64,000 nucleotides of DNA, taken from NCBI GenBank assembly GCA_963809485.1, contig CAWEJX010000007.1, positions 96,001-160,000 of the forward strand, read 5' to 3'. The first letter of the stretch is position 1. Each line of letters opens with the position of its first letter. Of this stretch, positions 12,055 through 53,197 are shown piece after piece. The notes under the pieces are model-generated. The model was not told the DNA's origin, did no database searches, and saw only the letters and a list, made by a program, of their open reading frames with translations. Origin of the DNA: an uncultured Acidobacteriota bacterium (GTDB lineage Bacteria > Acidobacteriota > UBA6911). Made by a program: the position numbers and the translations under genes.

Positions 12055-12552
12055 AAACACCTCATGGATATTCCTTGAATTTTGTGTCCGGGTCAAACGA
12101 GGCCACAACTATGGCACAACAATATTTGCCTTTGGAAGCCAATTCCGGTCAGATGTTCGTCAGCCCTTTTCAGCGTCCATCGGCGTTAATGGATGCGGTA
12201 GCGATCCGGCCTTGCAGGCTTCCCGGCAGCAGATCCGGGGGAATTCTGATGCACTCCAGCCTCTGGAGCTCTCCAGGAACCGTTCACGAGCCCGGATTCC
12301 CGCACAACCGTATCGTCCGCAGAATATGAGCGACATCCGCAGCATGCCCGAACGTATCTTCTTTTTCTTCAAACTGAATCCCATGTATTATAGCGTCCAC
12401 GGGGCATCGTGATATTTTGATCCGGATTGCCCCGTTCCGGCGCCGGCGGCAGACGGCCGTTTTATCGGGATATTGGCTTCCCGAGTTTGCCTTCAGGTTG
12501 CCGGGGTGCTTCTCTCCGCACAGTGCGGAGGTTTCGCAGAGACCTGGCATTC

Positions 12553-27713: not shown

Positions 27714-28057
27714 CGTTATCCCCCCTGTTTCTGCAAATAGAATATCCCTGGTACGCAACGAATATGAAAACCTGTTGATGCCGCTGACTGGCCGGGAATC
27801 GGCTACCGAAAATCGCTCCCATTATCGCACGTTTGCAGGCAATCCATGCAGGATCATGAGCAATTTCAGAACGGCCGCCGCCACGCCCCTGCCATCCGCA
27901 TTGCGGATCGATTGGTACCTTGCGGAACTCTGCTTCAGAGCCGTCATCCCTGCCTTTTAGGATTCCACTTCCTCCTTCCGTTTCAGCAGCCTATAATGAG
28001 GCCCAAGAACCACCAATTTCTGCCATGCGGCATGGAAATTTTCGCTCGGAGGAATTC

Positions 28058-34979: not shown

Positions 34980-35563
34980 TGCGATTTCCTCGCCGCATGC
35001 TTCATTTCCCGGTAAAGCCATCCCTTGGCCAGATCCCAGTCGCGCCACACGGTGTCGGCGGAGATCTTCAGCACTTCCGCGGCTTCCTCCAGACTTAACC
35101 CCCCGAAGAATCGAAGTTCGACCACTTGCGCCTTCCTGGGATCAACTTCCGCAAGCGCCGTCAGCGCATCGTCCAGTTCAACCAGGTTTGCATCCGGACG
35201 CAACGCGAACAGTGAGGCTTGATCCAGCGGCAGTTGGCGGAAATTGCCGCCTCGTTTCTGAGAATTTTTGGAGCGCGCATAGTGAACCAGAACCTGGCGC
35301 ATCAACTTGGCGGAGATTGCAAAGAAATGCGCGCGGTCCTGCCAATTCACTTTGGGCGCATCGAGCAGCTGCAGGTAGACCTCATTGATCAGTGCCGTGG
35401 TTTGGAGAGTGTGCCCGGCATGCTCATGCATCATGTATCGATGGGCGCGGCGGTGCAACTCATCGTGGACCAGGGGAACGAGCTTGTCCAGGGCCGCCGC
35501 TTCACCCCGGCACCACAACTGGAGCAGCTGAGTAACCTCCTGCGGAGAACATGGTTTTTCCAT
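34976..35563 (-). CDS. ECF sigma factor, TIGR02999/ECF43-like
   Basis: VTQLLQLW..G..AALDKLVPLV..EL, HTLQTTALINE, WQDRAHFFA, VVELRFFGGL. Confidence 0.9.
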   Translation of the reverse strand: MEKPCSPQEVTQLLQLWCRGEAAALDKLVPLVHDELHRRAHRYMMHEHAGHTLQTTALINEVYLQLLDAPKVNWQDRAHFFAISAKLMRQVLVHYARSKNSQKRGGNFRQLPLDQASLFALRPDANLVELDDALTALAEVDPRKAQVVELRFFGGLSLEEAAEVLKISADTVWRDWDLAKGWLYREMKHAARKSQ

Positions 35564-38689: not shown

Positions 38690-39307
38690 TCAGTACTTGC
38701 CATACTCTTTTGCAGCCTCCATCATGGCGCGCAGGTTCTCCGGATTGACCTGGCTGACCCAGGCGCCGCCCGCGAGAATAAAGCCGCCCCCTGGGGCGCA
38801 AGCTTCGATGACCTTTCGGCAATATTCCTTCACTTCCCTGGGGCCTCCGGTGACCATCAACGAGGAGGGAATATTTCCGGAGATGCAGCATGTCCTCCCT
38901 AGAATCGTCTTGGCTTTGGCCATGTCGGTTTTGTCGAACAGCCAGCCGACGACGCCTTTCGGGAATTCGTTGACAGATTCCAGCCGTGAATCGTAGGTCC
39001 CTTCGGCGAACAGTTCCGACCGGATCCCTTCTTTATCAAGCGCATCCACGACCTTCTTGAGGGACGGCCAGTAGAACTTTTCAAACTGCTTCGGCGACAT
39101 GAAACCATCGGCGCCTTTGTGCAGAGGAAAGCCTGCCGAGTGCGCCCGAGTCGCATTTGCGGCGGCAATGGTCTGACGGATTGTAAAACCAGTGACAGCG
39201 TCGATCGCCTCCAGCAACTGCTCGGGGCGCCGGAACATGTCCATAATGATGCCCTTGGTGCCTCTTTGCTTTTTCCCTGAGTTTTGCATCTTAAGCATCA
39301 AATGCAT
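38690..39307 (-). pseudogene. C-terminal half of a uroporphyrinogen decarboxylase/MtaA-like family protein
   Basis: RGTKGIIMDMFRRPE, FMSPKQFEKFYWPSLK, CISGNIP, APGGGFILA. The N-terminal half is absent. Confidence 0.75.
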
Positions 39308-39487
39308 TAAGCGGATCGAGCTTCGGATTTGGCCTTGCGCTCGGAGCTTTATGGAAGAACTTGGTTATCTCTTTTACGTCGAAAGCCGGCCAAACATCAA
39401 AAACAATCGGCCCTCATGGGAATTCATGCCGATCGGCAGCCTGCTGCAACCTTTGAGTTACCCGTTCCCCTTTGAGTTCCTGTCGCC

Positions 39488-39556: not shown

Positions 39557-42286
39557 TCAGATGACGCCCGATTTCTTAAGCTTACTCAGTCTGGAAGGTC
39601 CAAGGCCCAGATACTTGAGATAGATGTATTCATTGTCATAGCCCACCGGGCGGCACACCCATTTTGTCCGGATGGGCGTCTCGGTCATTTTATGTTGTGC
39701 CTGAGCTACAACAACCTCGCCATAAAGAGGATCTTTAACAGGAGCAAATATTCCCCGGTCCAGCCAGTTGCTGTCTTTCATGGCTTCTTCAGGGGAACAG
39801 ACCGGCGCGAGCACCGGCGTGATAGGAGCCAGGCGGCCTTTCCTGGCGTATTCCACAGACATGTCCACCAGTTCCTGCTTGGTGTATTTGGATGTCTCCG
39901 CAAAAATCAAAGGCGCCCATTTCAATTGCTCATCCTTTTGTATAAAGGCTGTCGGAGTCGTCCAGCTCGCGGCTCCCCACTCATCCCATTTTCCCATCAT
40001 GTCGGCAAATGCCTGCCACATTTCCAACCTTAATCCGCCCAGAAAAATGGTCCCATCCCTGGTGGGCGCGAAACAGTAGACCCAGCTCGTAATATCCAGC
40101 TGTCCAAAGCGCTCGGCAATCGCTCCGTGTTCCTGATACCACAACGCAGCCCAGCCGTCAAAACAGGCGTAAGCTTCAGCCGTCGCGACATCGAGCGCCT
40201 GTCCCTCTCCGGTCATTCGCCTCCAACGCAGGGCGGCCAGAATGCCGACTGCCATAAAAGTTCCCGGTGAAGCCCAGCCGATCCAGGGGCCGGCCTTTGT
40301 GGGAACTGCCCAGGGGCATTCACTATAAGTCATACCATCGGGCATGATTTCTCCTGTAGCCGACTGTATTCCCGATCTGGCCTGAGCGACATTGTCATAA
40401 TCCGGCATCCCTCTCCGGCTCATCGGCCCGAACTGTCCATAGGCTGTGAGCGAAGCGAATATCAGCCTGGGATTGATCTCTTTTAGTTGTTCATAACCAA
40501 TCCCCCACTCATCCATGGTTCCCGGCGGATAGGTTTCTATCAGCACATCCGTCTGGCTGACCAAACCTTTAAGGATCTCCCTGGCTTCGGGCTCCTTGAG
40601 ATTCAGCGTGATGTGAAACTTGTTTCTGCCCTCCGTCAAATAGTTAAGACCTTCGCCTTTGTGGAGCATACCGTAGGGAGTGCAGGTCCTGATGAAATCG
40701 CCTTCGGGGGGTTCTATTCTCAAAACCGAGGCGCCAAATTCCGCCAGCATGGAAGAGCAGTAGCATCCTGCAAAACTCTTATAACTTAAATCCAACACGG
40801 TGATATCGTTCACGGCCTCAGGTTTTGTTTTTGCAATCCGGGGATCATCTCTCTCTCTCATCCATTCCGCGACAGCCGACTGCCTGCTTCCTGCCGAACC
40901 CGCCTTTTTTTCCTGGCGCGATCCCGCCGGGCCGGCCGCCAACTGCCATGGCGGATCTTTCGTCATGATGAGGCCCGACTTGCCATCCCAATTCTGCGGG
41001 GGCCGGCGTTTCTGGATGTCCGCCCATTTGCCCAAAGCGCCGCACTGATACAACTGCCTGATCTCGTCTCCGCTCTTCCCCAGATGATTCATCATGATGA
41101 ATTCATTATCGAAACCTACCGGCCTTGCCGACCACCGCACCCTCGGCGGCGTCTTTGACATCATCACGGGAAATTCATGGACGAAGTAGCGTCCCAGAAC
41201 AGGATCATCCACCTCGGTCATGTATCCGCGCTCGCGGAAGTGCCGGTCTTCGACGACATCCTTGTTCGTGTAGAGGCGGGATGCGGCAAAACCATGTGTC
41301 TCGGCCAATCGCTCAACTTCATCAGGGGTTTTGGTTATCGTCCAGTCAGCGATGATTCTGATCAATTCCGAGGCGTGATCTTCCTGCAGTCGGGTCAGGT
41401 GGTCTTTAAACCTGGCGTCTTCAGCCAATCCCGGTTTGCCCATCGCAATGCATAGTCCCCTGAACTCTTCCGGGGCCGGCGCTGCGATGACGACGAAGTC
41501 GCCGCCAGCGCAACAGAATGTATCGGCAGGACAGATGGATGCATCACGGTTGCCGCCGGGCATGGCGGACTTGCCGGTGATCTGCTGGTAAGGCCACACC
41601 CAGGACATTGCCCGCATAATCGCTTCGGTCTGCGACAGCTCAATAAACTGACCCTTGCCCGTCCGGTCCCGGTAATGAAGGGCCGCCATAACGGCCATTT
41701 CGCCCATCAGCGCGCCGTAACTGTCGCAAATAAAAAGGCGGCTCTTCAGCGGCGCCCGATTTGGAAAACTCGACATCCACGCATATCCGGAGAAGGCCTG
41801 GGCGGCGCCATCATTGGAAGGCCGGTTCTCCATCGCATACTGGCCCCACTGTCCAAAGCCATTTTTGGAGATGTAAATAATGCCCGGATTGATCTCCTGG
41901 ATCTGTTGATACCCGACATTCCAGCCGTCCATGACTCCCGGTCTCAGGTTATCTTCGATGATGTCGGCTCCGGACGCGAGTTCCCGGAACACCTTCTGCG
42001 CCTCAGGTTTGTGCAGATCAAGTCCCACCCAGTATTTATTGGGATTATCATGCACAAATCCGGGACCATTCTCCCTGAACAAATTCGCGAAGGGAGCCAT
42101 GTCACGATGCGTATCTCCCATAGGAGGGATTTCAAACTTGATGACTTCAGCACCCATCTCAGCCAGGAAAGCCGATCCCAAAGGACCCAGGATAAGAGTG
42201 CAAACCTCCAGCACCCTGATTCCCTTTAACGGCAAAGGCTTGGAGTGCTTCTTTTCTCTATAGTCCGTCCACGTTTTTTCTGCCAT
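39557..42286 (-). CDS. Tandem two-domain class III (CaiB/BaiF) CoA-transferase
   Basis: Two CaiB domains (PLKGIRVLE...LAEMGAEVIKFE; DITVLDLS...LAEFGASVLRIEPPEGD), each with INP.I/L and D..AQA.SG. Confidence 0.9.
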   Translation of the reverse strand: MAEKTWTDYREKKHSKPLPLKGIRVLEVCTLILGPLGSAFLAEMGAEVIKFEIPPMGDTHRDMAPFANLFRENGPGFVHDNPNKYWVGLDLHKPEAQKVFRELASGADIIEDNLRPGVMDGWNVGYQQIQEINPGIIYISKNGFGQWGQYAMENRPSNDGAAQAFSGYAWMSSFPNRAPLKSRLFICDSYGALMGEMAVMAALHYRDRTGKGQFIELSQTEAIMRAMSWVWPYQQITGKSAMPGGNRDASICPADTFCCAGGDFVVIAAPAPEEFRGLCIAMGKPGLAEDARFKDHLTRLQEDHASELIRIIADWTITKTPDEVERLAETHGFAASRLYTNKDVVEDRHFRERGYMTEVDDPVLGRYFVHEFPVMMSKTPPRVRWSARPVGFDNEFIMMNHLGKSGDEIRQLYQCGALGKWADIQKRRPPQNWDGKSGLIMTKDPPWQLAAGPAGSRQEKKAGSAGSRQSAVAEWMRERDDPRIAKTKPEAVNDITVLDLSYKSFAGCYCSSMLAEFGASVLRIEPPEGDFIRTCTPYGMLHKGEGLNYLTEGRNKFHITLNLKEPEAREILKGLVSQTDVLIETYPPGTMDEWGIGYEQLKEINPRLIFASLTAYGQFGPMSRRGMPDYDNVAQARSGIQSATGEIMPDGMTYSECPWAVPTKAGPWIGWASPGTFMAVGILAALRWRRMTGEGQALDVATAEAYACFDGWAALWYQEHGAIAERFGQLDITSWVYCFAPTRDGTIFLGGLRLEMWQAFADMMGKWDEWGAASWTTPTAFIQKDEQLKWAPLIFAETSKYTKQELVDMSVEYARKGRLAPITPVLAPVCSPEEAMKDSNWLDRGIFAPVKDPLYGEVVVAQAQHKMTETPIRTKWVCRPVGYDNEYIYLKYLGLGPSRLSKLKKSGVI

Positions 42287-42327
42287 GGCGATGGTCAGCC
42301 CTCCATTGTCTGTTTTGCGTGCGAAGC

Positions 42328-42372
42328 GCGCCTTTGCCGTGCACGCGTTTCGCGTTTCCGGTTTCCCGTTTT
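42328..42372. repeat. 45-bp inverted repeat, right copy
   Basis: GCGCCTTTGCCGTGCACGCGTTTCGCGTTTCCGGTTTCCCGTTTT. Confidence 0.85.
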
Positions 42373-42403
42373 CAAATACAGGATCTCAACGGGAAACGGG
42401 AAA

Positions 42404-42436
42404 TCCAAAAGCGGCGGGAAGCTGCCGCACTCAAAA
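42404..42436. repeat. REP-like palindrome
   Basis: AAAAGCGGCGGGAAGCTGCCGCACTCAAAA, a GCGGC/GCCGC stem resembling REP elements. Confidence 0.5.
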
Positions 42437-42584
42437 CATCGCTCAAAAATCCTTTGCTGCACCTAAAATTCGCCGCATCGTCCGAGCTGCCGCTTCCCTT
42501 GCGCTTTGCCACAAGCCGGCACCGACACATCGGGCGCGGTCGTGTGCTCCCGGATGGCAGCGGCGGCAGGTCTGTGGATATCAG

Positions 42585-42983
42585 CTATTTTGTCGACGAA
42601 AAAGCGGCGGATCTATTTTCCTGTCCACGGACGCACCGCACGCGATAGGCGCTGCTTTTATAGTAGCTAAGGATATAGGCCCCATCAAACATGACGATCC
42701 AGGCGCTATAGGTGTTCGGAGCGAATGTTGTTGACGACCAGTAGCTCAGAGTATCCCTGAAGGGAACCTCTTCCCGCACAGTCGGGCGCATTCTCTCAAA
42801 TAGGGTTTTTCGATCGATCAGAGTTTCAAGCTCAGCCGCCGTCGGCAATCGCCAATCATTCCTGCCGTCCAGCGTCAACGACCGCGCGTACTCCCGGGCT
42901 TCGTACCAGGTCATTTCCCCCGGGGAATCGAGCTGCCACTCCAATCCGGTTTCCGGGTCCTTCCACGTCAGCATCATGATCAA
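42585..42983 (-). CDS. DUF1566 (Lcl C-terminal) domain protein
   Basis: DPETGLEWQ, MTWYEA..YA..L...G..DWRLPT..EL, YWSST, VRCVR. Confidence 0.85.
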   Translation of the reverse strand: MIMMLTWKDPETGLEWQLDSPGEMTWYEAREYARSLTLDGRNDWRLPTAAELETLIDRKTLFERMRPTVREEVPFRDTLSYWSSTTFAPNTYSAWIVMFDGAYILSYYKSSAYRVRCVRGQENRSAAFSSTK

Positions 42984-43041
42984 TAGTCAAAGGAGCAGGA
43001 ACGAATGTCCGCGGGGAACACCGGGGGCTGTTCCTCTCCTG

Positions 43042-44958
43042 TTACGGGACGATTCTTTGCAGCCCCTGATCGATACCGCTCGGGAAGGTGGACTCATCTC
43101 CCCAATAAATGCAATGGGCCGGGCAAGCCCAGGTGCATGCCGGAGCTTCGTTTCTGCCGCGCTTCTCAACGCAAAGGTCGCACTTTACCGCTTTCAGGGT
43201 CAGGTGGTTGAACTGCATGACGCCGTATGGGCAGGCCTGCACGCAGGAAGTGCCGCAGGTAATGCATCGCTTCGCTTCCTGCAGAGCAGCCTCTTCCGTA
43301 AGCCCGAGCTGAACTTCATCGGAGCCCATCCGTTCCCGGGGCGGCAACCAGGGGACCTGAACGCGAGGCGCCGGATCATACTTTTCCTTCTGCGGTTGTG
43401 TGATAGGCGTCAGCTTTGCATCTCTCGCTTCTCTGCCCGTGTAAAGATCCAGACCTCTCAGATATCGATCGATGGAAACGGAGGCTTCTTTCCCGCAGCC
43501 GATGGCCTCCACGACGGTCTTGGGTCCATAACAGGCATCCCCGCCTGCGAAGACACCAGGAATCGCCGTTTCCAGCGTTATGGGATCGACTACAAACTGG
43601 CCCGCTTCGCTGGTTGCAATGCCTTGTTCCTTCGCAAAGGCTATGTCCGCCGCCTGGCCAATAGCGACAATGACCGTGTCGGCCTCCAGCAGGGTCAGAT
43701 CCGCCTCATTGTATTTGGGACTGAAGGCGCCCTTTTCATCAAATACTGAAACGCAACGTTTGAATTCAATCCCGAACAGCCGGCTGTCTTTTTGCAAAAA
43801 CCTATTCGGCCCAAGGCCGTTGACAATCTTAATTCCTTCCTCGATTGCCTCGTTGATCTCGCGTTCCCATGCAGGCATCTCAGCGCGCTGCTCCAGAGCT
43901 GCGAGCGTGACCTCGGCTGCGCCTCTGCGGATTGCCGTCATTGCGACGTCCATGGCTACATTGCCGCCGCCCACGACAATGACTTTGCGCCCGAGCGAAA
44001 CAGGAATTCCCAAAGACACATCGCGGAGAAAATCTATCCCGTTCACTACCCCGGGCATATCTTCGTTGGCCACATTCAATCGGATGTTCTGATGAAGGCC
44101 TGTCGCCAGAAAGAAAGCTTTGTACCCTTCCTTCTTAAGGCTCTCGAAGGTCACATCTTTGCCGAAGGTCACTCCGGTTCTGATTTCCACGCCCATCTTC
44201 TTGATCACACCGATGTCGTTGGCCAGCGTTTTTCTGGGAAGGCGATAGAGCGGGATTCCGACGGCCATCATGCCGCCGGCGACCGGGAGCTTTTCGAACA
44301 CCGTCGTCCTGTATCCGTTCTTGGCAAGGAAATAGGCTGCTGCGAGTCCGGCCGGACCGGAGCCGGCAATGGCTACCTTTGCCTCTCTCGTCTGGTTAAT
44401 TTTGGGCACATACGCGTCGCCGTTCGCGCGATCCTGATCGGCCAAAAACCTCTCGATGGAACGGATGGATACCGGGTCATCAATCTGTTTCCGATTGCAG
44501 TCTGTTTCGCACGGGAAGGTGCAGACTCTGCCGCAGATGGACGGGAACGGGCTGGTTTCCTTCAGCAGCCGCAGCGCTTCCTGGTATTTGCTCCTCGCCA
44601 CGAGCCCGATGAATCCCTGGATATCGTTTCCTGCCGGGCAATTGAATTTACATGGAGAGGTTTGCTGCTTCTCCGCTCCCGACTTGCCGGTCACGGCATT
44701 GCAGCCATTGCATTTTTCAGGATCTTGAAGCACGACGCCGGTTTCCGGATCTCTCCGGATGGCTTCTTCCGGACAAGACAGCGCACAAGGTGCATCTTCG
44801 CAATGGTGACAGTAATACTGCATGAACAACGGCGCCCTTTCCAAAACCTTTACCACCCTCGGGCCGACCGGAAGCCCGTGCTCCTGCTTGCATGCGACCT
44901 CGCAGGTGTGGCAACCGCAGCAATCCACCTGGCTGAATATCAATGATATTTTGCTCAT
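43042..44958 (-). CDS. DmsB-like 4Fe-4S protein with inserted GltD/NfnB-like FAD/NAD(P)H oxidoreductase module
   Basis: CCGCHTC..AC, CHHCEDAPC..SCP, then PCKFNCP, CGRVC..PCE..C, GSGPAG, GGGNVAMD, then CVQACPYG, KCDLC, PAC..ACP. Start overlaps the upstream stop (ATGA). Confidence 0.85.
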   Translation of the reverse strand: MSKISLIFSQVDCCGCHTCEVACKQEHGLPVGPRVVKVLERAPLFMQYYCHHCEDAPCALSCPEEAIRRDPETGVVLQDPEKCNGCNAVTGKSGAEKQQTSPCKFNCPAGNDIQGFIGLVARSKYQEALRLLKETSPFPSICGRVCTFPCETDCNRKQIDDPVSIRSIERFLADQDRANGDAYVPKINQTREAKVAIAGSGPAGLAAAYFLAKNGYRTTVFEKLPVAGGMMAVGIPLYRLPRKTLANDIGVIKKMGVEIRTGVTFGKDVTFESLKKEGYKAFFLATGLHQNIRLNVANEDMPGVVNGIDFLRDVSLGIPVSLGRKVIVVGGGNVAMDVAMTAIRRGAAEVTLAALEQRAEMPAWEREINEAIEEGIKIVNGLGPNRFLQKDSRLFGIEFKRCVSVFDEKGAFSPKYNEADLTLLEADTVIVAIGQAADIAFAKEQGIATSEAGQFVVDPITLETAIPGVFAGGDACYGPKTVVEAIGCGKEASVSIDRYLRGLDLYTGREARDAKLTPITQPQKEKYDPAPRVQVPWLPPRERMGSDEVQLGLTEEAALQEAKRCITCGTSCVQACPYGVMQFNHLTLKAVKCDLCVEKRGRNEAPACTWACPAHCIYWGDESTFPSGIDQGLQRIVP

Positions 44959-47076
44959 TTGGCTTCCTCCCATTCTTCGTCGCAGGGGGAAATGTTGCAC
45001 AAGCAGACCCTGAGGTTCGTGGAGCCCATATTGGGATCGCAGGTTTCGAAGGCGTTGTTTGTGATGATATTGGAGCTCGAGATATCCCAACCGTGTCCCG
45101 GATCTTTCATCTCCGGATACCACCATCCGTGCTCCGCGGCGATGACGTTCGGAAGAAGTCCTTCCGTAATTTTAGCCTTTTGTTTGATGCGTCCCCGCGG
45201 CGATTCGATCCAGACCCATTGACCGTCCTTGATTCCATGCTTTTTTGCGGTTTCAGGATGGATTTCGCAGATCGGCCATGGCCGTATTTCCCTCAACCAC
45301 GGGATCATGCGCATCTCGGTATGGAAGAATGTCGGCGTCCTGAGTCCCGAGTTGAAAATGTACGGATATCTCTTCGCCACTTCAGGCGTTGAAACCGGGC
45401 TTTCGGGAATCTCCTGATACTTGGGCACCGGATCGCGCCCCCACCTTTCCAATATGGTGGACGACAATTCCAGTTTTCCGGTAGGCGTTGAAAAACCTCT
45501 TTCCTTATATTTGCCGTAAACCATTTCGCCGTGCAGATAATCCTTCTCCTTGAATTGTTCCCAATTCAGGCCGGAAGGTTCCAGCAGGTAGGTCAGCGAA
45601 TCCTCGACGGTCGGGAACCACTGCTGCCCCATTCGCTTGCCGAGCTCGAGGAAGATTTTGTGATCCTGCCACGCTTCGCCGATATCCACGCACTTCACCC
45701 GGGCAAACACATAGCCGTGCCGCTTCCAGTTGTCGGCGACATAATTCTGTTCCAGCCAGGTTCCTGCCGGCAGGAAGATGTCCGCCAGTTCGGCTGTCGG
45801 AGTCAGGAAATGATCGATGACTACCAGAAATCCCAGCTGCTGCAAGGCGAGATAAGCCTGTTTCGCGTTGGCCCGGGATACGACCGGATTGGTCCCGCAG
45901 AGGAGCCCTGCTTTAAGCTGATACGGCGTCCCATAGACAATGGAGTCCCACGCTTTTTTCGGATTGATAAACTGCACTCGGGCGCCCAGGAAAAACTCCA
46001 TGCCGCCCAGCCGCTTCTGCTGCACTTCTCTCGACAGGCTTTTGTGGCAGGAAAACTCGGCGACCGTCCTGACCGGCGGATTCACAAAAAGGACATTTCC
46101 TCCGGGCGTATCCAGATTACCCGTAATTCCCATCAATCCGATCGCGGTGCGGGTGAAGTCCGTGCAGTTGTTGTTTTGTTCCGTGGGCACACCCCAATGG
46201 ATCGCCGCCGGTTTTGTGGTCGCATAGAGCCGCGCGGCGGCCCGGATCTTTTCCTTGTCCACCCACGTGATTTTCTCCACCTTATCCAGAGCGATAATCC
46301 TTCATGACCCGCTCTTTAAAGGCATCCCAACCGTGAACGTAGGTTTGCACGAAATCCTTGTCGTAGAGCTCCTCTTCGATAATTACATGGTGGAAACCGA
46401 GAGCCAGGGCGCAATCGGTGCCGGGACGAATCTGCAGCCAGATATCGGCCTTCCCTCCATAGAAAGATTTCCGGGGATCGATGCTGATCAGCTTAGCGCC
46501 GTTCTTATAGGCCCGGTAAAAGTTCTCTCCCTTGTATTCATCCGCGTTGGTCCACATGGGATTGCTTGCCCACATGACAATGAGCTTGGGCTCGCCGACG
46601 TAATAGTCGACAACCGGAAGGTTGCCGCAGGTAATGAGGCTTGTGGATACCCTGGAGACATAACACATATGCCCGGCCGTCAAAACGTTGGGCGTTCCCA
46701 ACAGATTCGCGAAGCGGTACATGTGGCTTTCATAATCCCTGCCGGTTCCCTGCCCGACCACGATATATTCCGGCCCGTATTTATCGACAACTTCCTGGAA
46801 CCTGGTTGCGACGGTATCCAGCGCCTCATCCCAGGTGATTCGCTCCCACTGCCCGCTCGGCTTCGGCCCCACGCGTTTCATCGGATAAAGGATCCTGTCC
46901 GGATGATAGGCCAGCTGTGTGACGGACAGCCCTTTGGTACACATGGTGCCGTGGCTGATGGGATCGTCGGGATTCCCTTCAACCTTGATCACCTTGCCGT
47001 CTTTTACGTAGGCAAAACAGCCGCAAGCGCCGTGGCAACAGCGGCAATGCGTTCGGATCTTTTTTATCTCTTCCAT
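44955..47076 (-). pseudogene. Mo/W-bisPGD oxidoreductase (acetylene-hydratase-like branch), frameshifted at ~46285
   Basis: CRCCHGAC...MCTKG Fe-S motif, GHMC putative Cys ligand, IRPGTD, TAELADIFLP, FSTPTGKLE, IHPETA. No Tat leader. Removing one base at GATTATCGCTCTGGATAAG restores D-Y-x-L-D-K-V-E. Confidence 0.85.
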
Positions 47077-47102
47077 TGGATGTCCTCCTCGGCTTCCTCA
47101 TC

Positions 47103-47138
47103 TTAGTGAGGTTGGCCCTGGAGAGCCGTCCTCACTAA
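47103..47138. other. Intergenic stem-loop between metF and the Mo/W enzyme
   Basis: TTAGTGAGG...CCTCACTAA. Confidence 0.45.
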
Positions 47139-47147
47139 TAATTCCTT

Positions 47148-48083
47148 TCAGACTTTCGGTCTCGGCAACAGCCCGGCCCTCTCAGCGATTTCCGGGATCT
47201 TTTGCTCCCATTCGATGGCCATGAGGTGAACTCCTGCAACACCTCGAATTTCTTTCAAAAGGGAGATCTGTTCGCAGGCGATCTGAATTCCTTCACCCGC
47301 TTCCCTATCCTTCGGGACACCTCGGAGACGAGACACAATTTCATCCGGAATTTCCATCCCGGGCACATCCTTCTGCATGTATTCAGCCATCCGGACGCTT
47401 TTCAGCGGCGTGATGCCGGCGATAAGGTAAACCTCCCCCAGCAGCCCCATGTCCGAAGCGCGCAGGATGAACTCACCGAATCTCGTCATGTTGTAGATGC
47501 ACTGAGTCTGTATAAAATCGGCCCCCGCCCGAATCTTCTTGGCCAGCCGACGGACGCTGAATTCGAATGGGTCCGCGAAGGGATTTATGGCCGCGCCGAT
47601 GAACATCCGCGGCGGACCGTCGATGGGTTCTCCGCCGGCAAATTTACCCTCGTCGCGCATCGTTTTGACCATCCGGATGAGCTGTATGGAATCAATGTCG
47701 AAAACTCCCATGGCATCCGGATGATCCCCGAAATCCTGATGATCCCCGGAAAGGCACACCATGTTCCGAATGCCATTGGCATAGGCCGCCAGGATATCGC
47801 TCTGCATGGCCAGCCGGTTTCGATCGCGGCAGACCATCTGATAATTCGGCTCCAGACCTTCCTGTAGCGCGATGATTGAAGCGCCCCAGCTCGACATGCG
47901 AACCATGGCGGTGGGATTATCGGTAATGTTGACGGCGTCTACGCAATTCCGAAGGTATCTTGCTTTCTCGCGGATCTTGATCGCATTGGCCCCGCGCGGC
48001 GGACCCAGCTCGCCGGTGAATGCGAATTCGCCCGACCTGAGCACTCGTTCCAGGTTGCTGCCTGATTTCATCGTCGCATTCAT
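47148..48083 (-). CDS. metF: Methylenetetrahydrofolate reductase (MetF, MetV-associated type)
   Basis: GELGPPRG, NITDNP, CRDRNRLAMQSD, LSGDH, KKIRAGADFIQTQ. Confidence 0.9.
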   Translation of the reverse strand: MNATMKSGSNLERVLRSGEFAFTGELGPPRGANAIKIREKARYLRNCVDAVNITDNPTAMVRMSSWGASIIALQEGLEPNYQMVCRDRNRLAMQSDILAAYANGIRNMVCLSGDHQDFGDHPDAMGVFDIDSIQLIRMVKTMRDEGKFAGGEPIDGPPRMFIGAAINPFADPFEFSVRRLAKKIRAGADFIQTQCIYNMTRFGEFILRASDMGLLGEVYLIAGITPLKSVRMAEYMQKDVPGMEIPDEIVSRLRGVPKDREAGEGIQIACEQISLLKEIRGVAGVHLMAIEWEQKIPEIAERAGLLPRPKV

Positions 48084-48115
48084 GGACGCAATTCGTGTGG
48101 ATTCGTGGCTGCCTT

Positions 48116-48403
48116 TCAGCCGCCGGCGGCCAGCATCATGATGGTTATGCGATCACCGTCCTGCAGGGGCCTCTGCATCTGGTCGGACCGAATCCACTCC
48201 TCTTTGTTGCGCAGGACCTTGAAGATCATGTCCAGGCTGCCGGTTTCGTCGAGAAGGAATTTTTTGACATCCTTTCCGTATTTGTCCGTTATCTGGCGGA
48301 TCAAGCCTTCAACGGTCTGGCCCGAGTAATCCATTGTGATCGTCTTGCTGCCGACCATTTTTACCACATTGGGCAGGCTGAGGAATTCGATCGTAATCGC
48401 CAT
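48116..48403 (-). CDS. MoaD/ThiS-family sulfur carrier
   Basis: Ubiquitin-like size, LQDGDRITI, C-terminal GG. Confidence 0.85.
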   Translation of the reverse strand: MAITIEFLSLPNVVKMVGSKTITMDYSGQTVEGLIRQITDKYGKDVKKFLLDETGSLDMIFKVLRNKEEWIRSDQMQRPLQDGDRITIMMLAAGG

Positions 48404-48915
48404 CACTGAACCTCGAGAAGCGAGGAAGCCTTCCGATCCGCGGCCTGGAGCCTCCGGGCCGCCTCCCTCCCTTTTTGCAGGCCCAGGTCCCTGGGCTCGA
48501 CAAAACTGACTGCGGCGACATCGCAGAAGCGAACGCACTGCGGCTCGCCGTCACAAAGATCGCACTTGATCACCTTTCGGTCGGTAGAGACGAAGTGCAT
48601 CGCCCCAAATGGGCATACGGACACGCAGGTGCGGCAACCGATACATTTTTCATAATCCACATCCACCCGCGCCATGTCCGCGTTGCGCGAGAGCGCTTTG
48701 GCCGGACAACCGATTACGCAGGGAGCATCCTCGCATTGCTGGCAGGATACGGGCACATAGATCCCCTCGGATTCCCATTTGATGATGCGTATCCGGCTGC
48801 GCATGGGATTGGACACGTGATCATGTTTTACGGAGCAGACAAGCTCGCACAGCCTGCATCCCGTGCACTTTTCATAATCCACTTTCAGGACTTTGCTGTT
48901 CTTTGGCATGGACAA
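48403..48915 (-). CDS. 4x[4Fe-4S] ferredoxin subunit (AOR partner)
   Basis: CTGCRLCELVC, CQQCEDAPC..GCP, CIGCRTCVSVCP, KCDLC...C..C. Confidence 0.9.
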   Translation of the reverse strand: MSMPKNSKVLKVDYEKCTGCRLCELVCSVKHDHVSNPMRSRIRIIKWESEGIYVPVSCQQCEDAPCVIGCPAKALSRNADMARVDVDYEKCIGCRTCVSVCPFGAMHFVSTDRKVIKCDLCDGEPQCVRFCDVAAVSFVEPRDLGLQKGREAARRLQAADRKASSLLEVQ

Positions 48916-48937
48916 TTTTCCTCACGGTTGCCGCCGG

Positions 48938-50878
48938 CTACAGCTGGCGGGAAGGCTCGCCCTCCAGTCCAAGCCTTTTCAATGTTTCCGGTTTGGGAAT
49001 GCCGTCTTGATCGAGCCCTTTGTGCGCGTAAAACTCGTCCAGCATTTGGACAAACTTATCTTTGTCGATCTTTATTCCCACCACGCCGGGAGCTCCCCGC
49101 AGGCAGGGCTCATCAAAATAGCGATGGCTGAGCGTGTCTCCCTTTCTCGGGTCGTTGCGCGTCAAGCCTTCGCGCAGGTTGAAAAGCCTTTCAATCATGT
49201 TGCATCGCTCGGCTACCTCCCAAATCTGAACCGGCGATAATTCCAGCCCTGTGTTATAAAAAACCACCTTGGCCCAGTCCTCGAAGTTGGGATGCGTCGC
49301 TCCCAGAAACACCGTGTGATATTTGCATATGCCGAGGCAATCGACCGCCATGTAGCAGTTTTCCTGCCAGAAGACCTGCCAGGATTTGCCCTCGTAGGCT
49401 GTGTGCTCCGAGCTCAGCGGTCCATCATAAGGAACCGGGCTCGAATAGATCTTCCTCAGCACAGGCTCCGGCAGGTGATAGAGATCGATGGCCGGCCGGC
49501 TTCTCAGGTGATCGGACCCGCGCGATGCTGTGGCGATATTCAACGCCAGGGCCGGAGTCGCGCGCTCGTCGGAGTGCAGGTTGTTCATCCCCTTGACCTG
49601 GACCAGGTAGTCGAAGGAATTCTTGCCGATTTTTTCGGAAGCCGGGATCCCGCCGTCGGCCAGAGTATCTCCGAGCCAACCCTTCCGGAAACAAATGCGG
49701 TGGATCATCTCGATGAGCGCTTCATCATTGCCGAAGCGCAGATCGAGTCCGCCAGTTTGCTCCTTCGTCAGGATGCCGAGCTCGAACAGCTCCATGGCCC
49801 ACGAGATCATGCTCCCCGTCTCCAGGTTGTCCAGGCCATATTGATTGACAAGATAATTGCCTGTCATGACGGTCTCGGCATTCCGGCAATCCGGCTCCGC
49901 GCCGAATGCGCCCAGAGACGTGTACTCAGGGCCTTCATCGTATTTCCCGGCGTAAGGGCCTGAGGGCAGCTTGTAGCGGGCGCGGCAGTGGACCTGGCAC
50001 GCATAGCAGCTGGCCATGTGGTAGGGGCCCATGGTTGCCGTCGCGATCTCATCCAGGTGCTCCGGCTCGATATCATCGGCATATTCGCACTGGTTATATT
50101 GGAAATTGCGCGAGCGCACACCGCCCCAGGAGTTGGTCGCGCCCCAAATGAAGGGCGTTCCCAAAGTCCCTTGCGTCTGGTTGACTTTGGAGCTCGTGAT
50201 CTGATCGATAAACCTCTTGTTATATTCGAGGGCTTCGACAGGACGGGCGATCTTAATATCCATGGAGCCGCGGGCGGCAACCGCCTTGAGATTCTTGGAA
50301 CCCATAATGCAGCCCATGCCGGTCCTGCCGCCGGAATTTTTGATGCCGGTCCTGACGTTCGCAAACCGCACCAGGTTTTCTCCGGCAGGGCCGATCACAA
50401 GGCTTTTTACTTCAGGATCCGCAAGCTCTTCTTGAATAGCCCATTGGGTTTCGGTTGCGCTTTTGCCCCAGATATTCTTCGCGTCCCGGATCTCGATCTC
50501 GCCATCATGGATAAAAAGGTAAACAGGCTTAGCTGCTTTGCCCCTGATGACCAGGTGGTGGAATCCGGCCCATGCAAGCTCGGGAGCAAAAAAGCCCCCC
50601 ATGTTCGTGGAACCCAGGAAGCCTGTCAGCGCCGATTTGGCCATGACATGCGTACGTGTCGTGGCGGAAGCGCATGTGGCCGTGAGAAGCCCGCCGGAAA
50701 TCAGCAGGACATTATCCGGTCCCAGCGGGTCGACTCCTTGGGTGGTGTGGTTGTAGAGCAGATAGGCATCCAATCCTCGTCCGCCGAGAAATCTCCTGCG
50801 AATTTCCAAAGGGATCGGCTTGACCTGAATATCGCCGGTTGTCAGATCGATATAGGCGATCTTTCGATTGAGTGCCAT
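48938..50878 (-). CDS. Tungsten-dependent aldehyde:ferredoxin oxidoreductase family protein
   Basis: LGGRG, IGPAGENLV, GRTGMG..MGSKNLKA, CYACQVHC, EGPEY, GLD, DCLGIC, ERLFNLREG. Confidence 0.92.
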   Translation of the reverse strand: MALNRKIAYIDLTTGDIQVKPIPLEIRRRFLGGRGLDAYLLYNHTTQGVDPLGPDNVLLISGGLLTATCASATTRTHVMAKSALTGFLGSTNMGGFFAPELAWAGFHHLVIRGKAAKPVYLFIHDGEIEIRDAKNIWGKSATETQWAIQEELADPEVKSLVIGPAGENLVRFANVRTGIKNSGGRTGMGCIMGSKNLKAVAARGSMDIKIARPVEALEYNKRFIDQITSSKVNQTQGTLGTPFIWGATNSWGGVRSRNFQYNQCEYADDIEPEHLDEIATATMGPYHMASCYACQVHCRARYKLPSGPYAGKYDEGPEYTSLGAFGAEPDCRNAETVMTGNYLVNQYGLDNLETGSMISWAMELFELGILTKEQTGGLDLRFGNDEALIEMIHRICFRKGWLGDTLADGGIPASEKIGKNSFDYLVQVKGMNNLHSDERATPALALNIATASRGSDHLRSRPAIDLYHLPEPVLRKIYSSPVPYDGPLSSEHTAYEGKSWQVFWQENCYMAVDCLGICKYHTVFLGATHPNFEDWAKVVFYNTGLELSPVQIWEVAERCNMIERLFNLREGLTRNDPRKGDTLSHRYFDEPCLRGAPGVVGIKIDKDKFVQMLDEFYAHKGLDQDGIPKPETLKRLGLEGEPSRQL

Positions 50879-50879
50879 G

Positions 50880-51137
50880 CTACTTTTCCTCCTCCCGCTT
50901 CTTCAGGGCTTCCTCGGCAAGCTTTCGATTGGCGTCCCATACGGGTCCTCGGATCCTTGGAAAGTCCGGACGAATCCAATGAACGCGAAACTCCATGCCG
51001 CACGCGGGGCACTTCACCTGTGCCTGTCCGGCCTCCGGCTGCAGGCGTCCCATGCAACTTGGGTTGTGGCATCGGAATTGTCCGTAGGTCCTTGTTTTTC
51101 TCAAAGCCTCGGCGGTCGAAACATCCTCATCAGCCAT
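50880..51137 (-). CDS. Small zinc-ribbon protein
   Basis: CHNPSC...CPAC; first gene of the AOR operon. Confidence 0.7.
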   Translation of the reverse strand: MADEDVSTAEALRKTRTYGQFRCHNPSCMGRLQPEAGQAQVKCPACGMEFRVHWIRPDFPRIRGPVWDANRKLAEEALKKREEEK

Positions 51138-51153
51138 GGCTCCCTCTCCGGCA

Positions 51154-51169
51154 GTTCATTATGAAGAAC
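51154..51169. promoter_or_regulatory. Putative IclR operator 1
   Basis: GTTCATTATGAAGAAC (GTTC-N8-GAAC). Confidence 0.5.
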
Positions 51170-51303
51170 AAAATTGAAATCACAATAACATGGCCGATCC
51201 CGGCCATGTCAATAATAAAATAATTTATGGAAATAACTTAATAAATGCAATAATTTGTTGTTGACACAAATCCATATCCTGATTCATATTCTCATTCCAG
51301 ATC

Positions 51304-51319
51304 GTTCTCTATAGAAAAC
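51304..51319. promoter_or_regulatory. Putative IclR operator 2
   Basis: GTTCTCTATAGAAAAC, downstream of TTGACA at 51261. Confidence 0.5.
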
Positions 51320-51339
51320 AATTGCCGGAGCAAGTCCGC

Positions 51340-52113
51340 ATGTACCAGGCGCCGATTGTTACCAAAGCTTTCCGTATCCTTGAGCTTGTCGCCAGGAAGG
51401 ACAAGCTGATGACAATCAGCGATCTCTCCCGGGAATTGGGTATCAATAAAAGCACTGTACACGGGATTGCCCACGCTCTTGAAAAAGCAGGCGCCATCGT
51501 CCGGGACAAAAAGACAAAGCGCTATATGCTCGGCATGGCGCTTTTTGAATTGGCCCGGGCAGGCTACGTTCGAATCGATCTTAAAGATATTGCCAGGCCG
51601 GTCATGGAAGATTTGATGCGATCGACGCAGCAGTCGGTGTTCCTGGGCATCCGCTCCGGCGATCACGTTTCCATCATAGATATCGTCGAGTCGGCGCAGG
51701 ATTTAAAGATCACCTCTCCTGTAGGGACACGGGTGCCTTTGTTGGCGGGAGCCATCGGGAAAGCATTCCTCGCATTAATGGAAGAAGGCCAGGCCGCCTC
51801 ATTGATACGCACTCTGGGCCTGCGCAGGTATACGGAAAATACGATTACGGACCCGAACCTCTATATGAAGAAAGTCGGCGAGGCGCGCGCAGCGGGATAC
51901 GGGCTGGACGATGAAGAATATATTCAGGGGGTCCGGGCCGTTGCTGCGGTCATTCAAAATTCCGGGCCGCGGCCGTCGGCCGTCTGGGTGGTCGGATTCA
52001 GTCCGAGCATGAGTGCGGAAAAGCTGCCGGTGATTGCGCTGGAAACGAAACGCACGGCAGAGGCAATTTCTCAGAAGATCGATCTCCGCTCGTACAACGG
52101 ACAGGAACGATGA
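51340..52113 (+). CDS. IclR family transcriptional regulator
   Basis: KAFRILE...ISDLSRELGINKSTVH, GAIGKAFLA, YTENTITD, GYGLDDEEY..GVRAVA. Confidence 0.92.
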   Translation: MYQAPIVTKAFRILELVARKDKLMTISDLSRELGINKSTVHGIAHALEKAGAIVRDKKTKRYMLGMALFELARAGYVRIDLKDIARPVMEDLMRSTQQSVFLGIRSGDHVSIIDIVESAQDLKITSPVGTRVPLLAGAIGKAFLALMEEGQAASLIRTLGLRRYTENTITDPNLYMKKVGEARAAGYGLDDEEYIQGVRAVAAVIQNSGPRPSAVWVVGFSPSMSAEKLPVIALETKRTAEAISQKIDLRSYNGQER

Positions 52114-52505
52114 TCTATTTCCAGGTAAACAGCAAGTGCAACGGGTGTCTTGCCTGTGTCCGGAACTGTCCGGCCCGGGCGCTTGATGCCAAAGAAGCAG
52201 GAGGCACGCAGACGCTGTTCCATAACATGGCGCTCTGCGCGCGATGCGCCACCTGTTGGAGAATATGCCCCGAGCATGCGATCGAGTTCCAGCACCTGCT
52301 CCAAAACCAATGGGACGAAGTCGTCACACATTACCTTGTGCGATGCAAAGAATGCGGTGAAGTCGTCTACGCGGAGCGCTTGAAGGACAGCCTCGAGCCG
52401 AAAGTCCGCGAACTGGTCGAACCGCTGTGTACCCGCCACAAGCTGGAGCGGCAGGCAAAGGCACTGGCAGGGAGGCAGCGACGGGTCAGCGGGACAGCAT
52501 CATGA
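52110..52505 (+). CDS. 2x[4Fe-4S] ferredoxin-like protein
   Basis: CNGCLACVRNCP, CARCATCWRICP, plus CKEC. Confidence 0.85.
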   Translation: MIYFQVNSKCNGCLACVRNCPARALDAKEAGGTQTLFHNMALCARCATCWRICPEHAIEFQHLLQNQWDEVVTHYLVRCKECGEVVYAERLKDSLEPKVRELVEPLCTRHKLERQAKALAGRQRRVSGTAS

Positions 52506-53197
52506 TCGTAGGAGATTTGAAAGAGATCAGCGAGATTGCATCTTCCATCGCCGGCTACTCGAAGGTGCTGGTTCTCGGATGCGGCGGCTGCGTGACTGTT
52601 TGCAGGTCGGGCGGCGACGCCGAAGCCCAGGATCTGTCGCGCCGGCTTTCCCATCCCGAGCATTACAGGGGTGTGCCTCCCGAGCTTATGGTTGGCACCA
52701 TCGAGAGGCAATGCGAGAATGATCTGATCAAATCCTTCCTCCAGATTCCCGAAGGCACCGACGCGATTTTGTCCCTGGCGTGCGGAGCCGGAGTGCAGAT
52801 TGTCGCCGATGCTTTCGAGCCGTTGCCTGTTCTTCCGGCGCTAACCACCACTTTTATGGGTGGAGCCGATGAACCCGGCGTCTGGCGCGAAAAGTGCCGT
52901 GGATGCGGAGACTGTCTGCTGGCCTGCACGGCGGGCATTTGCCCGATTACGCTTTGTGCGAAGCGCCTGCTGAATGGTCCCTGTGGAGGTTCCCGCGGCG
53001 GATACTGCGAAGTGGGATCGGAAACTCCTTGCGCCTGGGCAAAAATTTACGTGCGGCTCGAAAAGCAAGGCCGGCTGCATCTGCTGGACGAGATCCGAAT
53101 GCCGCGCGACTGGCGCAAAGCCGGCTATCGGACGGCGCGGGAGCGCCGGCGGACCGGCGTGGAATTATTTGGCGGCGGTCCACATACCAATTCCTGA
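52502..53197 (+). CDS. metV: Methylene-THF reductase small subunit MetV
   Basis: GCGGCVTVC, RQCE, ACGAGVQ, CRGCGDC, CAKRLLNGPCGG, CAW. Confidence 0.85.
   Translation: MIVGDLKEISEIASSIAGYSKVLVLGCGGCVTVCRSGGDAEAQDLSRRLSHPEHYRGVPPELMVGTIERQCENDLIKSFLQIPEGTDAILSLACGAGVQIVADAFEPLPVLPALTTTFMGGADEPGVWREKCRGCGDCLLACTAGICPITLCAKRLLNGPCGGSRGGYCEVGSETPCAWAKIYVRLEKQGRLHLLDEIRMPRDWRKAGYRTARERRRTGVELFGGGPHTNS

Follow-up and report, generated by a model that had tools for sequence, protein, structure and literature searches.

We analyzed a divergent gene cluster built around a tungsten-type gene of the aldehyde oxidoreductase (AOR) family in a 64,000-nucleotide stretch of DNA from an uncultured Acidobacteriota bacterium (positions 96001–160000 of contig CAWEJX010000007.1, called C7 below, from a 6.0-Mb, 21-contig genome that is 95.7% complete with 7.3% contamination). 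This whole stretch is called the window, and coordinates refer to it unless a contig or locus is named. We consider it reasonably probable that the cluster is composite, with two modules that are each conserved independently of the other and an unconserved neighbor, rather than a single conserved pathway, because the molybdenum/tungsten (Mo/W) enzyme gene of the second module was found at only 3 of 80 related AOR loci and the neighbor, a CoA-transferase gene, at none of them, and AOR together with MetF was found at only 2 (L102 and L131) of the 25 Mo/W loci with at least 3 kb of upstream sequence. Module A comprises iclR, a ferredoxin gene (fd), and metV, diverging from the genes for a Zn-ribbon protein, AOR, an iron–sulfur (FeS) protein, MoaD, and MetF; module B comprises the genes for the Mo/W enzyme, an FeS-flavoprotein, and a DUF1566 protein. 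A sequence-only reading of the window had joined all of these into one catabolic pathway. The neighborhood conservation search that it proposed as a check bore out the gene association of module A and the conservation of each module by itself, and went against conservation of the full set together. The genes named by that reading were all recovered in our gene calls, which combined an open reading frame listing with Pfam and NCBIfam profile scans of the window proteins; a split in the Mo/W gene and a URO-D-family remnant had been overlooked. The features of the locus are listed below.

52502–53197, plus strand: MetV-like FeS protein of an AOR-associated subfamily (PF12225, 115.7 bits)
52110–52505, plus strand: ferredoxin of 131 amino acids with two [4Fe-4S] motifs and a C-terminal extension bearing Cys
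51340–52113, plus strand: IclR-family regulator (HTH_IclR and IclR_C); the reading frame opens with TTG at 51322 and has its first Met at 51340
51304–51319, no strand: putative operator box 2, GTTCTCTATAGAAAAC, proximal to iclR and just downstream of a promoter-like site, TTGACA-18-CATATT, at 51261–51290
51154–51169, no strand: putative operator box 1, GTTCATTATGAAGAAC, a palindrome 17 nt upstream of the start codon of the Zn-ribbon gene
50880–51137, minus strand: Zn-ribbon protein of 85 amino acids, predicted small subunit of AOR; no Pfam family above cut-off
48938–50878, minus strand: AOR-family tungsten-type catalytic subunit, WorL-like (AFOR_N 236.5 bits, AFOR_C 334.3 bits)
48403–48915, minus strand: four-cluster FeS subunit, WorS/AorA-like (Fer4 families; four Cys motifs, 16 Cys)
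48116–48403, minus strand: MoaD/ThiS-like protein with a Gly-Gly C terminus, WorX/AorD-like, for cofactor maturation (ThiS; TIGR01687 moaD_arch)
47148–48083, minus strand: MetF, methylene-tetrahydrofolate (THF) reductase flavoprotein (PF02219, 129.5 bits)
44955–47076, minus strand: acetylene-hydratase-like bis-molybdopterin guanine dinucleotide enzyme (the Mo/W enzyme), whole span, in two open reading frames
46282–47076, minus strand: N-terminal part of the same enzyme, with the Fe4S4 domain and the first half of the Molybdopterin domain
46288–46295, minus strand: frameshift site in the Mo/W gene, one extra base by alignment with L002, L004, L102, and L131
44955–46280, minus strand: C-terminal part of the same enzyme (Molybdopterin profile positions 182–352 and Molydop_binding)
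43042–44973, minus strand: FeS-flavoprotein, an N-terminal ferredoxin-like domain fused to a GltD-like NAD(P)H/FAD module (NCBIfam PRK12771, 475 bits); the start is taken at Met52 of a 694-residue reading frame, as in L102
42585–42983, minus strand: Lcl_C/DUF1566 protein (PF07603, 90 bits)
42411–42428, minus strand: terminator-like hairpin (weak evidence) in the 298-nt gap before the CoA-transferase gene
39557–42286, minus strand: tandem (fused) family III CoA-transferase of 909 amino acids (two PF02515 stretches, 606 bits)
38690–39307, minus strand: URO-D-family (methyltransferase-type) remnant, truncated at its 5′ end (URO-D profile positions 155–346 only)

Conservation of the Gene Set

The AOR search gave 429 relatives in species-representative genomes, and 80 loci, with AORs 78–90% identical to that of the window, were kept; counts for module A come from tblastn of the window proteins against these 80. 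They originate from metagenome-assembled genomes (MAGs) labeled Acidobacteriota, Desulfobacterota-type lineages, Aminicenantes, Fibrobacterota, and others, the closest loci being from Acidobacteriota MAGs. The metagenome scan for the Mo/W enzyme yielded 576 confirmed relatives; we kept the 80 best, 40 of which, at 68% identity or more, make up the close set. L-numbers denote loci of relatives, and G290 is a genome of the same genus. At the AOR loci, the Zn-ribbon gene was present in 78 of 80 and the four-cluster FeS gene adjoined AOR equally often (78 of 80), and a divergent iclR was found in 57 (in 47 of the 53 loci with at least 3.5 kb of upstream sequence). The ferredoxin gene occurred in 39 and moaD on the same strand in 16, and a ThiS gene on the opposite strand was seen in 22. 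Genes of module B were rare at these loci, the FeS-flavoprotein being found at 4 and DUF1566 at 1 of the 80, and the closest AOR relative, L001 (90%), continues for 8 kb after metF without any gene of module B or for a CoA-transferase.

The CoA-transferase is not a conserved partner of either module. It was found at 1 of the 80 Mo/W loci, that of the near-identical strain L102, and no locus but those of the window and L102 has it after DUF1566; it is absent from that place in L004, L131, and G290. In L102, two extra genes separate it from DUF1566 (L102:11678–13986), encoding proteins of 265 (weak DUF4079) and 181 amino acids (weak Rieske); the window has only 298 nt there (42287–42584), which implies an indel of about 2 kb between the strains. 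The terminator-like hairpin in this gap is a weak hint only, as the terminator scan was at chance overall (16 sites against 16.8 in shuffles), and a pattern search of the window found no operator box before the CoA-transferase gene. The protein is a family III CoA-transferase by its CoA_transf_3 domain and has two paralogs in the genome, and its fused-length homologs (323 at E ≤ 1e-50) are named only "CaiB-like." Of the CoA activation proposed earlier, an association of the Mo/W family with a ligase stands, an AMP-forming ligase gene lying directly upstream of the Mo/W gene in 12 of 80 loci, and the CoA-transferase as the partner, seen in the L102 strain only, does not.

The composite reading has points against it. 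In at least four loci of the genus (the window, L102, L131, and L004), modules A and B follow each other closely on the same strand, and the arrangement recurs in L002; outside the genus, the two were seen together only in one other MAG, L035, in a different order. A functional link between the modules may thus still exist. Taken further, the whole stretch would be one catabolic pathway, with substrates such as methoxylated or hydroxylated aromatic aldehydes and acids from lignin, in which AOR would oxidize the aldehyde, the CoA-transferase activate the acid, the Mo/W enzyme dehydroxylate it, and MetF/MetV handle the methyl-THF from O-demethylation. Besides the recurrence of the arrangement, this is favored by the leftward genes, all on the same strand with short gaps between them, by the acyl-CoA ligases at the 12 Mo/W loci and URO-D methyltransferase-type genes near the Mo/W gene at 5 loci, with the remnant here, by the many URO-D paralogs (at least nine) and five MetF/MetV sets of the genome, and by catechol dehydroxylases having been reported as nearest to acetylene hydratase (PMC7028382). 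We nevertheless regard a single pathway as unlikely, if still to be reckoned with: the gene set is not conserved at either the AOR or the Mo/W loci, L001 lacks these genes over its 8 kb, and the CoA-transferase gene stands behind a gap with a terminator-like hairpin here and behind two extra genes in L102, lacks an operator box, and is missing from the other relatives named above.

The URO-D remnant corresponds to residues 228–443 of a 444-residue paralog elsewhere on the contig, to which it is 80% identical. Its tblastn span (38694–39341) is wider than the ATG-delimited reading frame, and no N-terminal part was found in any frame.

An AOR Clade with an Altered Second Shell

Nine solved structures of the AOR family matched the AOR of the window and place it in the AOR/WOR family. 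The best solved match, over the full length, was Pyrococcus furiosus AOR (PfAOR; 1aor) at 312 bits; 8c0z matched at 261 bits and BamB at 218 bits. PfAOR is a homodimer without partner subunits. Its Thr243, His448, and cluster cysteines align in the AOR here, and two of its four second-shell residues are replaced in the Zn-ribbon AOR clade, Glu313 by Thr and Tyr427 by Ser in 81 of 81 members, which retain Thr243 and His448. The 313 position is occupied by Glu in all of five solved relatives, and a 2025 review reports Thr243, Glu313, Tyr427, and His448 as conserved in known AORs (PMC12096430). With two of these four replaced, the protein falls outside the AORs in the strict sense and is probably not a standard aldehyde oxidoreductase. 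Aldehyde oxidation, as the sequence-only reading had it, is uncertain because Glu313 and Tyr427 are replaced: the family assignment held, and the aldehyde-oxidizing signature was found wanting. With the same replacements, the enzyme may even catalyze another type of reaction. A ring reductase like BamB, of the Class II benzoyl-CoA reductases, is disfavored, if not fully, since PfAOR-type structures score higher and no Bam partner genes (BamDEFGHI) were found in the window, a comparison by score and gene content that did not extend to Cys322, the tungsten ligand of BamB.

The Zn-ribbon protein has four invariant cysteines (C-x4-C...C-x2-C) and an invariant PRIRGPVW motif, and its atlas neighbors are all labeled "hypothetical protein." Its predicted complex with AOR reached an ipSAE of 0.88, a mark attained by 58 of 80 solved complexes and by 2 of 110 mismatched pairs, and the best control gave 0.00. 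The runs agreed in at least 88% of contacts with a partner pLDDT of at least 80, and the predicted interface takes in AOR residues 243–251, beside the equivalent of Thr243. The Zn-ribbon protein is thus a predicted small subunit of AOR, with the caveat that the complex is a model and not a measurement.

The neighboring small subunit with its four [4Fe-4S] motifs agrees with WOR Class II, and the order of the AOR, four-cluster FeS, and MoaD-like genes is that of AorABC(DE) of Aromatoleum aromaticum (8c0z; WOR Class II/III; PMC13328260). In contrast to these systems, the locus here has the extra Zn-ribbon gene and the replacements of Glu313 and Tyr427; it also lacks an AorC-type FAD subunit, having the ferredoxin/MetV pair and MetF instead, and appears to be under IclR control through a conserved palindrome. 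The enzyme would then be a heteromeric tungsten-type oxidoreductase of a WorL-like catalytic subunit, a four-cluster WorS-like "wire," and a small Zn-ribbon subunit. By the authors' own count, a physiological role is known for five of 92 clades of tungsten oxidoreductases (PMC13328260). The Zn-ribbon AOR branch is widespread, with its 429 relatives; its conservation across phyla is unusually high, and its active-site residues do not fit the accepted catalytic signature.

Other genes recur beside this AOR in relatives and are not in the window. An EutA-like ATPase gene follows the AOR–FeS pair in 20 loci, many of them of Desulfobacterota type (e.g., L061:4741–6171), and a gene for a 474-residue protein without a Pfam match does so in 14 (e.g., L077:12669–14093). 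At L023 (7210–8763, minus strand), and also at L019 and L069, a shortened second AOR paralog of 517 amino acids, with a full AFOR_N and a partial AFOR_C domain, lies between IclR and FeS–ferredoxin–MetV.

A Palindrome Conserved Between the Two Arms

The two GTTC-N8-(G/A)AAC boxes reported earlier in the shared promoter are real. Matches to GTTC-N8-RAAC number 6 in the 64 kb, against 3.9 expected, and two of them fall within the 185-bp intergenic region. We extracted 36 divergent intergenic regions between the IclR and Zn-ribbon genes, from the window and 35 loci, and found a perfect GTTC-N8-GAAC in 28, one with a single mismatch in 6, and none in 2; by plain arithmetic, not shuffles, about 0.003 perfect sites would be expected in each 200-bp region. 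The commonest form among the 36 regions was GTTCATTATAATGAAC. In all eight aligned Acidobacteriota regions, both boxes were kept together with two back-to-back TTGACA elements, each box sitting just downstream of a promoter-like site, and the operator is conserved across phyla. A hairpin at 51186–51211, a perfect inverted repeat with 9-bp arms between the promoters, was rejected as a regulatory element, as it was present only in the window and L102 among the eight aligned relatives.

The regulator belongs to the IclR family by its HTH_IclR and IclR_C domains and the palindromic sites near its own gene. Operators published for this family include those of NpdR, GTTCMRYATMRTGAWS, and PcaR (PMC8222616). 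The group 1 operators of the NpdR and PcaR type have the same GTTC/GAAC-armed palindrome in a divergent promoter beside the regulator gene, and in our own comparison with the NpdR sequence given in that source, 15 of 16 positions agree with the consensus of the putative boxes here. The pattern supports the divergent IclR control proposed earlier: a 16-bp palindrome closely follows each of the back-to-back promoter-like sites, and the IclR protein would bind there and through these putative operators repress both arms, that is, its own operon iclR–fd–metV and the operon Zn-ribbon–AOR–FeS–moaD–metF.

Association of the AOR with MetV and MetF

The pairing of MetF (PF02219) with MetV (PF12225) is that of MetVF-type reductases. 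In acetogens such as Clostridium ljungdahlii, the same pair is found and reduced ferredoxin is the reported electron donor (PMC8515935, PMC8760232). In contrast to the acetogen genes, metV and metF do not form one operon here and lie, as noted earlier, in opposite arms, 4.4 kb apart on opposite strands, and the MetV falls in a separate, AOR-associated group; at three of the other four sets of the genome, metV and metF are adjacent or fused.

The tie between AOR and these proteins, asserted by the sequence-only reading, appears not to be accidental. Of the 80 AOR loci, 38 have MetV, as do 32 of the 53 that extend 3.5 kb or more upstream. A tree was built from 54 MetV sequences, the outgroup being 15 MetVs from elsewhere in the window's genome and from five Desulfobacterota genomes; in it, the 39 AOR-linked sequences fell on one side of a branch with support of 87/92, a split recovered in 88% of the bootstrap trees. 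For MetF, a quick tree was made of 32 sequences, in which the 14 AOR-linked ones fell in two clades, each sister to nonlinked MetFs; the clades differ in gene order, with FeS–MoaD–MetF at the end of the operon in the Acidobacteriota type and IclR diverging from MetF–ferredoxin–MetV–Zn-ribbon–AOR in L032, L033, L042, and L049. Because the AOR-linked MetFs fall in two clades, MetF seems to have joined the AOR locus at least twice, independently. Together, a dedicated MetV lineage and this apparent repeated arrival of MetF argue for a functional connection with AOR.

Several observations weigh against this connection as a general one. The outgroup of the MetV tree consists of only 15 sequences from 6 genomes, and MetF was found in 11 of the 80 AOR loci only. 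Of the loci that reach 8 kb or more to either side, ten have MetV and no MetF, and in five such Desulfobacterota genomes, no MetF lies within 10 kb of the AOR-linked MetV, MetF–MetV pairs being found elsewhere; the MetV-like protein may serve another acceptor, since the AOR-linked MetV is often without a nearby MetF. The MetF/MetV link is also one of several redox wirings, because other lineages have, between the IclR and Zn-ribbon genes, HdrA-like flavoproteins with an HdrC-like protein or a 341-residue Fer4 protein.

Pressed to its end, this would make the MetF/MetV neighborhood incidental, AOR being a broad aldehyde-detoxifying ferredoxin oxidoreductase of WOR Class II and MetF/MetV an ordinary one-carbon enzyme. 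WorL, WorS, and MoaD are the published Class II layout (PMC13328260), and the rarity of MetF at the AOR loci and the four other MetF/MetV sets in the genome point the same way. We think this very unlikely, as the AOR-linked MetVs form a distinct group and the MetFs come from two clades with two gene orders, fd and metV are translationally coupled to the regulator of the AOR operon (ATGA stop/start overlaps join iclR to fd and fd to metV), and the replacement of Glu313 and Tyr427 in all 81 clade members is against an ordinary aldehyde oxidoreductase.

In module A as we read it, electrons leaving AOR most likely run along the FeS wire, then through the dedicated ferredoxin and MetV, and end at MetF, a route inferred in both its course and its direction. 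We found no description of the link in the literature, nor in the text of the WOR classification paper (PMC13328260), whose supplementary neighborhood datasets were not covered. A conserved link, if true, would be a new coupling of a tungsten enzyme to one-carbon metabolism and would name a new electron source for MetVF enzymes, for which the donor is still debated. The MetV subfamily and the apparent repeated recruitment of MetF are new here, as are, in module B, the enzyme family with its DUF1566 partner and the frameshift described below.

The Mo/W Enzyme of Module B

The label of acetylene-hydratase-like enzyme, given in the sequence-only reading, is correct by similarity: the intact 707-residue ortholog at L004:6164–8287 matched the acetylene hydratase of Pelobacter (Syntrophotalea) acetylenicus (PDB 2e7z), the closest solved structure, at 403 bits and the next structure at 212 bits. 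Both enzymes are of the cytoplasmic type, with no Tat signal seen. The Cys141-equivalent ligand and the N-terminal Fe4S4 Cys motif of acetylene hydratase are invariant in 77 of 77 family members. In contrast to that enzyme, all 77 have His for Asp13, Gly for Ile14, and Tyr for Ile142; in the motif C-R-C-C-H-G-A-C, the His stands at the position of Asp13, which in the hydratase adjoins Cys12, and the metal-ligand Cys is kept. Asp13 is described as essential and specific for the hydratase subfamily (PMC12096430). Hydration, which had been one of the proposed reactions, is unlikely given this His at the Asp13 position and the translational coupling of the gene to that of an NAD(P)H-type FeS-flavoprotein, and a redox reaction is expected from its coupling to FeS or FeS-flavoprotein and DUF1566 genes. 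Such a partner follows the Mo/W gene in 23 of 23 close loci, as a full-length FeS-flavoprotein in 13 and an FeS-only protein in 10, and DUF1566/Lcl_C is a conserved third gene, following in 17 of the 23 close loci with at least 2.6 kb downstream. Upstream, an IclR-like gene, 33–37% identical to the IclR of the window, is found in 17 of the 25 close loci with at least 3 kb of sequence. In the Acidobacteriota sample, the enzyme is rare, with matches at E ≤ 1e-100 in 3 of 401 genomes, the window's own included.

Module B is thus more likely a separate NAD(P)H-linked redox enzyme than a hydratase. It probably acts, and probably reductively, on an activated, possibly aromatic, carboxylic acid; besides the upstream AMP-forming ligases, one sister lineage has DctM–UPF0261–IclR–AMP-ligase genes directly before the Mo/W gene. 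The best functional analogy is with catechol dehydroxylases, to which acetylene hydratase is reported to be most closely related (PMC7028382), and those of gut Actinobacteria (Dadh, Cldh) are cited from that literature as a functional analogy only, not by sequence comparison. With its His for Asp13 and 576 or more metagenomic relatives, the family is large, and some reductive steps still missing from anaerobic aromatic degradation might be found in it. Neither AOR nor the Mo/W enzyme should be annotated by its nearest characterized relative.

In the genus of the window, module B comes after module A in the same orientation, and the two may be cotranscribed; the tandem CoA-transferase would be a recent neighbor. 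A bolder extension joins the two modules in function: the Zn-ribbon AOR would be a nonaldehyde tungsten enzyme plugged into the folate one-carbon pool via ferredoxin, MetV, and MetF, merged with a reductase of CoA-activated aromatic acids, perhaps a dehydroxylase, into one IclR-controlled unit for methoxylated or hydroxylated aromatics, in which methyl-THF released by O-demethylation would be oxidized, supplying or accepting electrons for the two metal enzymes. This we regard as speculative and quite unlikely.

Elsewhere in the genome, two acetylene-hydratase/Psr-like paralogs lie within 3–4 kb of single-domain family III CoA-transferases (C7:434678–440181 and C19:52348–58640), which hints that the pairing of the two types recurs. 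The genome also holds 27 AOR-family matches, five MetF loci, and five MetV loci.

A Frameshift in the Mo/W Gene

In the window, a single extra base near 46290 splits the Mo/W gene into two open reading frames that are out of frame with each other. L002, L004, L131, and L102 have orthologs without a break at this site, and L102, the AOR of which is 99% identical, encodes a protein to which the two halves are 99% identical but for the one base. Contigs of four soil and wetland metagenome runs omit one letter at 46292 or 46294 in nearly all of their depth (5.18 plus 5.93 of 11.1–17.2 in run X1, 21.65 of 21.7 in X2, 32.9 of 33 in X3, and 13 of 13 in X5); the runs represent related populations (best word share 0.19), not a proven source, and do not separate an assembly error from a private mutation. 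As further genes in the same assembly are split likewise, the interruption is more likely one of these two than a feature of the system. Selenocysteine or a programmed frameshift was rejected, the reading frames being in different frames and the relatives simply lacking one base. That the cluster is decaying here, the Mo/W gene being a true pseudogene, the URO-D gene truncated, DNA lost between DUF1566 and the CoA-transferase, and the left part nonfunctional, could draw on the insertion, the URO-D remnant, the roughly 2 kb with two genes of L102 that the window lacks, and an in-frame TGA in the G290 ortholog where L004 has Arg, but it is hardly likely at all, the Mo/W halves being otherwise nearly identical to the intact protein and the other split genes of the 21-contig assembly fitting indel errors.

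The TGA of the G290 ortholog (L100:268–2385) is at residue 526, which is not a metal-ligand position. The Mo/W gene is thereby interrupted in two of the genomes of the genus examined, those of the window and G290.

Other Features of the Window

An Rfam scan of the whole window gave no family at the gathering score, and no riboswitch was found. The flanks of the locus are unrelated to it and contain Ser/Thr kinases, a Sel1-repeat protein, PadR, TetR, and a BBE-type oxidase. Two of the flanking genes, at 27920–30700 on the plus strand and 32064–35048 on the minus strand, encode paralogous Ser/Thr protein kinases with PD40 β-propeller repeats on either side of a glyoxalase-family gene. At 12427–14823 (plus strand), a 798-residue reading frame combines an ABC-transporter ATPase, Wzt_C, and a radical-SAM domain and represents an unusual fusion or else two genes joined by read-through. 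A carboxylesterase reading frame at 7412–9027 (plus strand) covers profile positions 3–244 of 515 and is accompanied by a second one in another frame at 8350–9027, which is probably due to an assembly frameshift.

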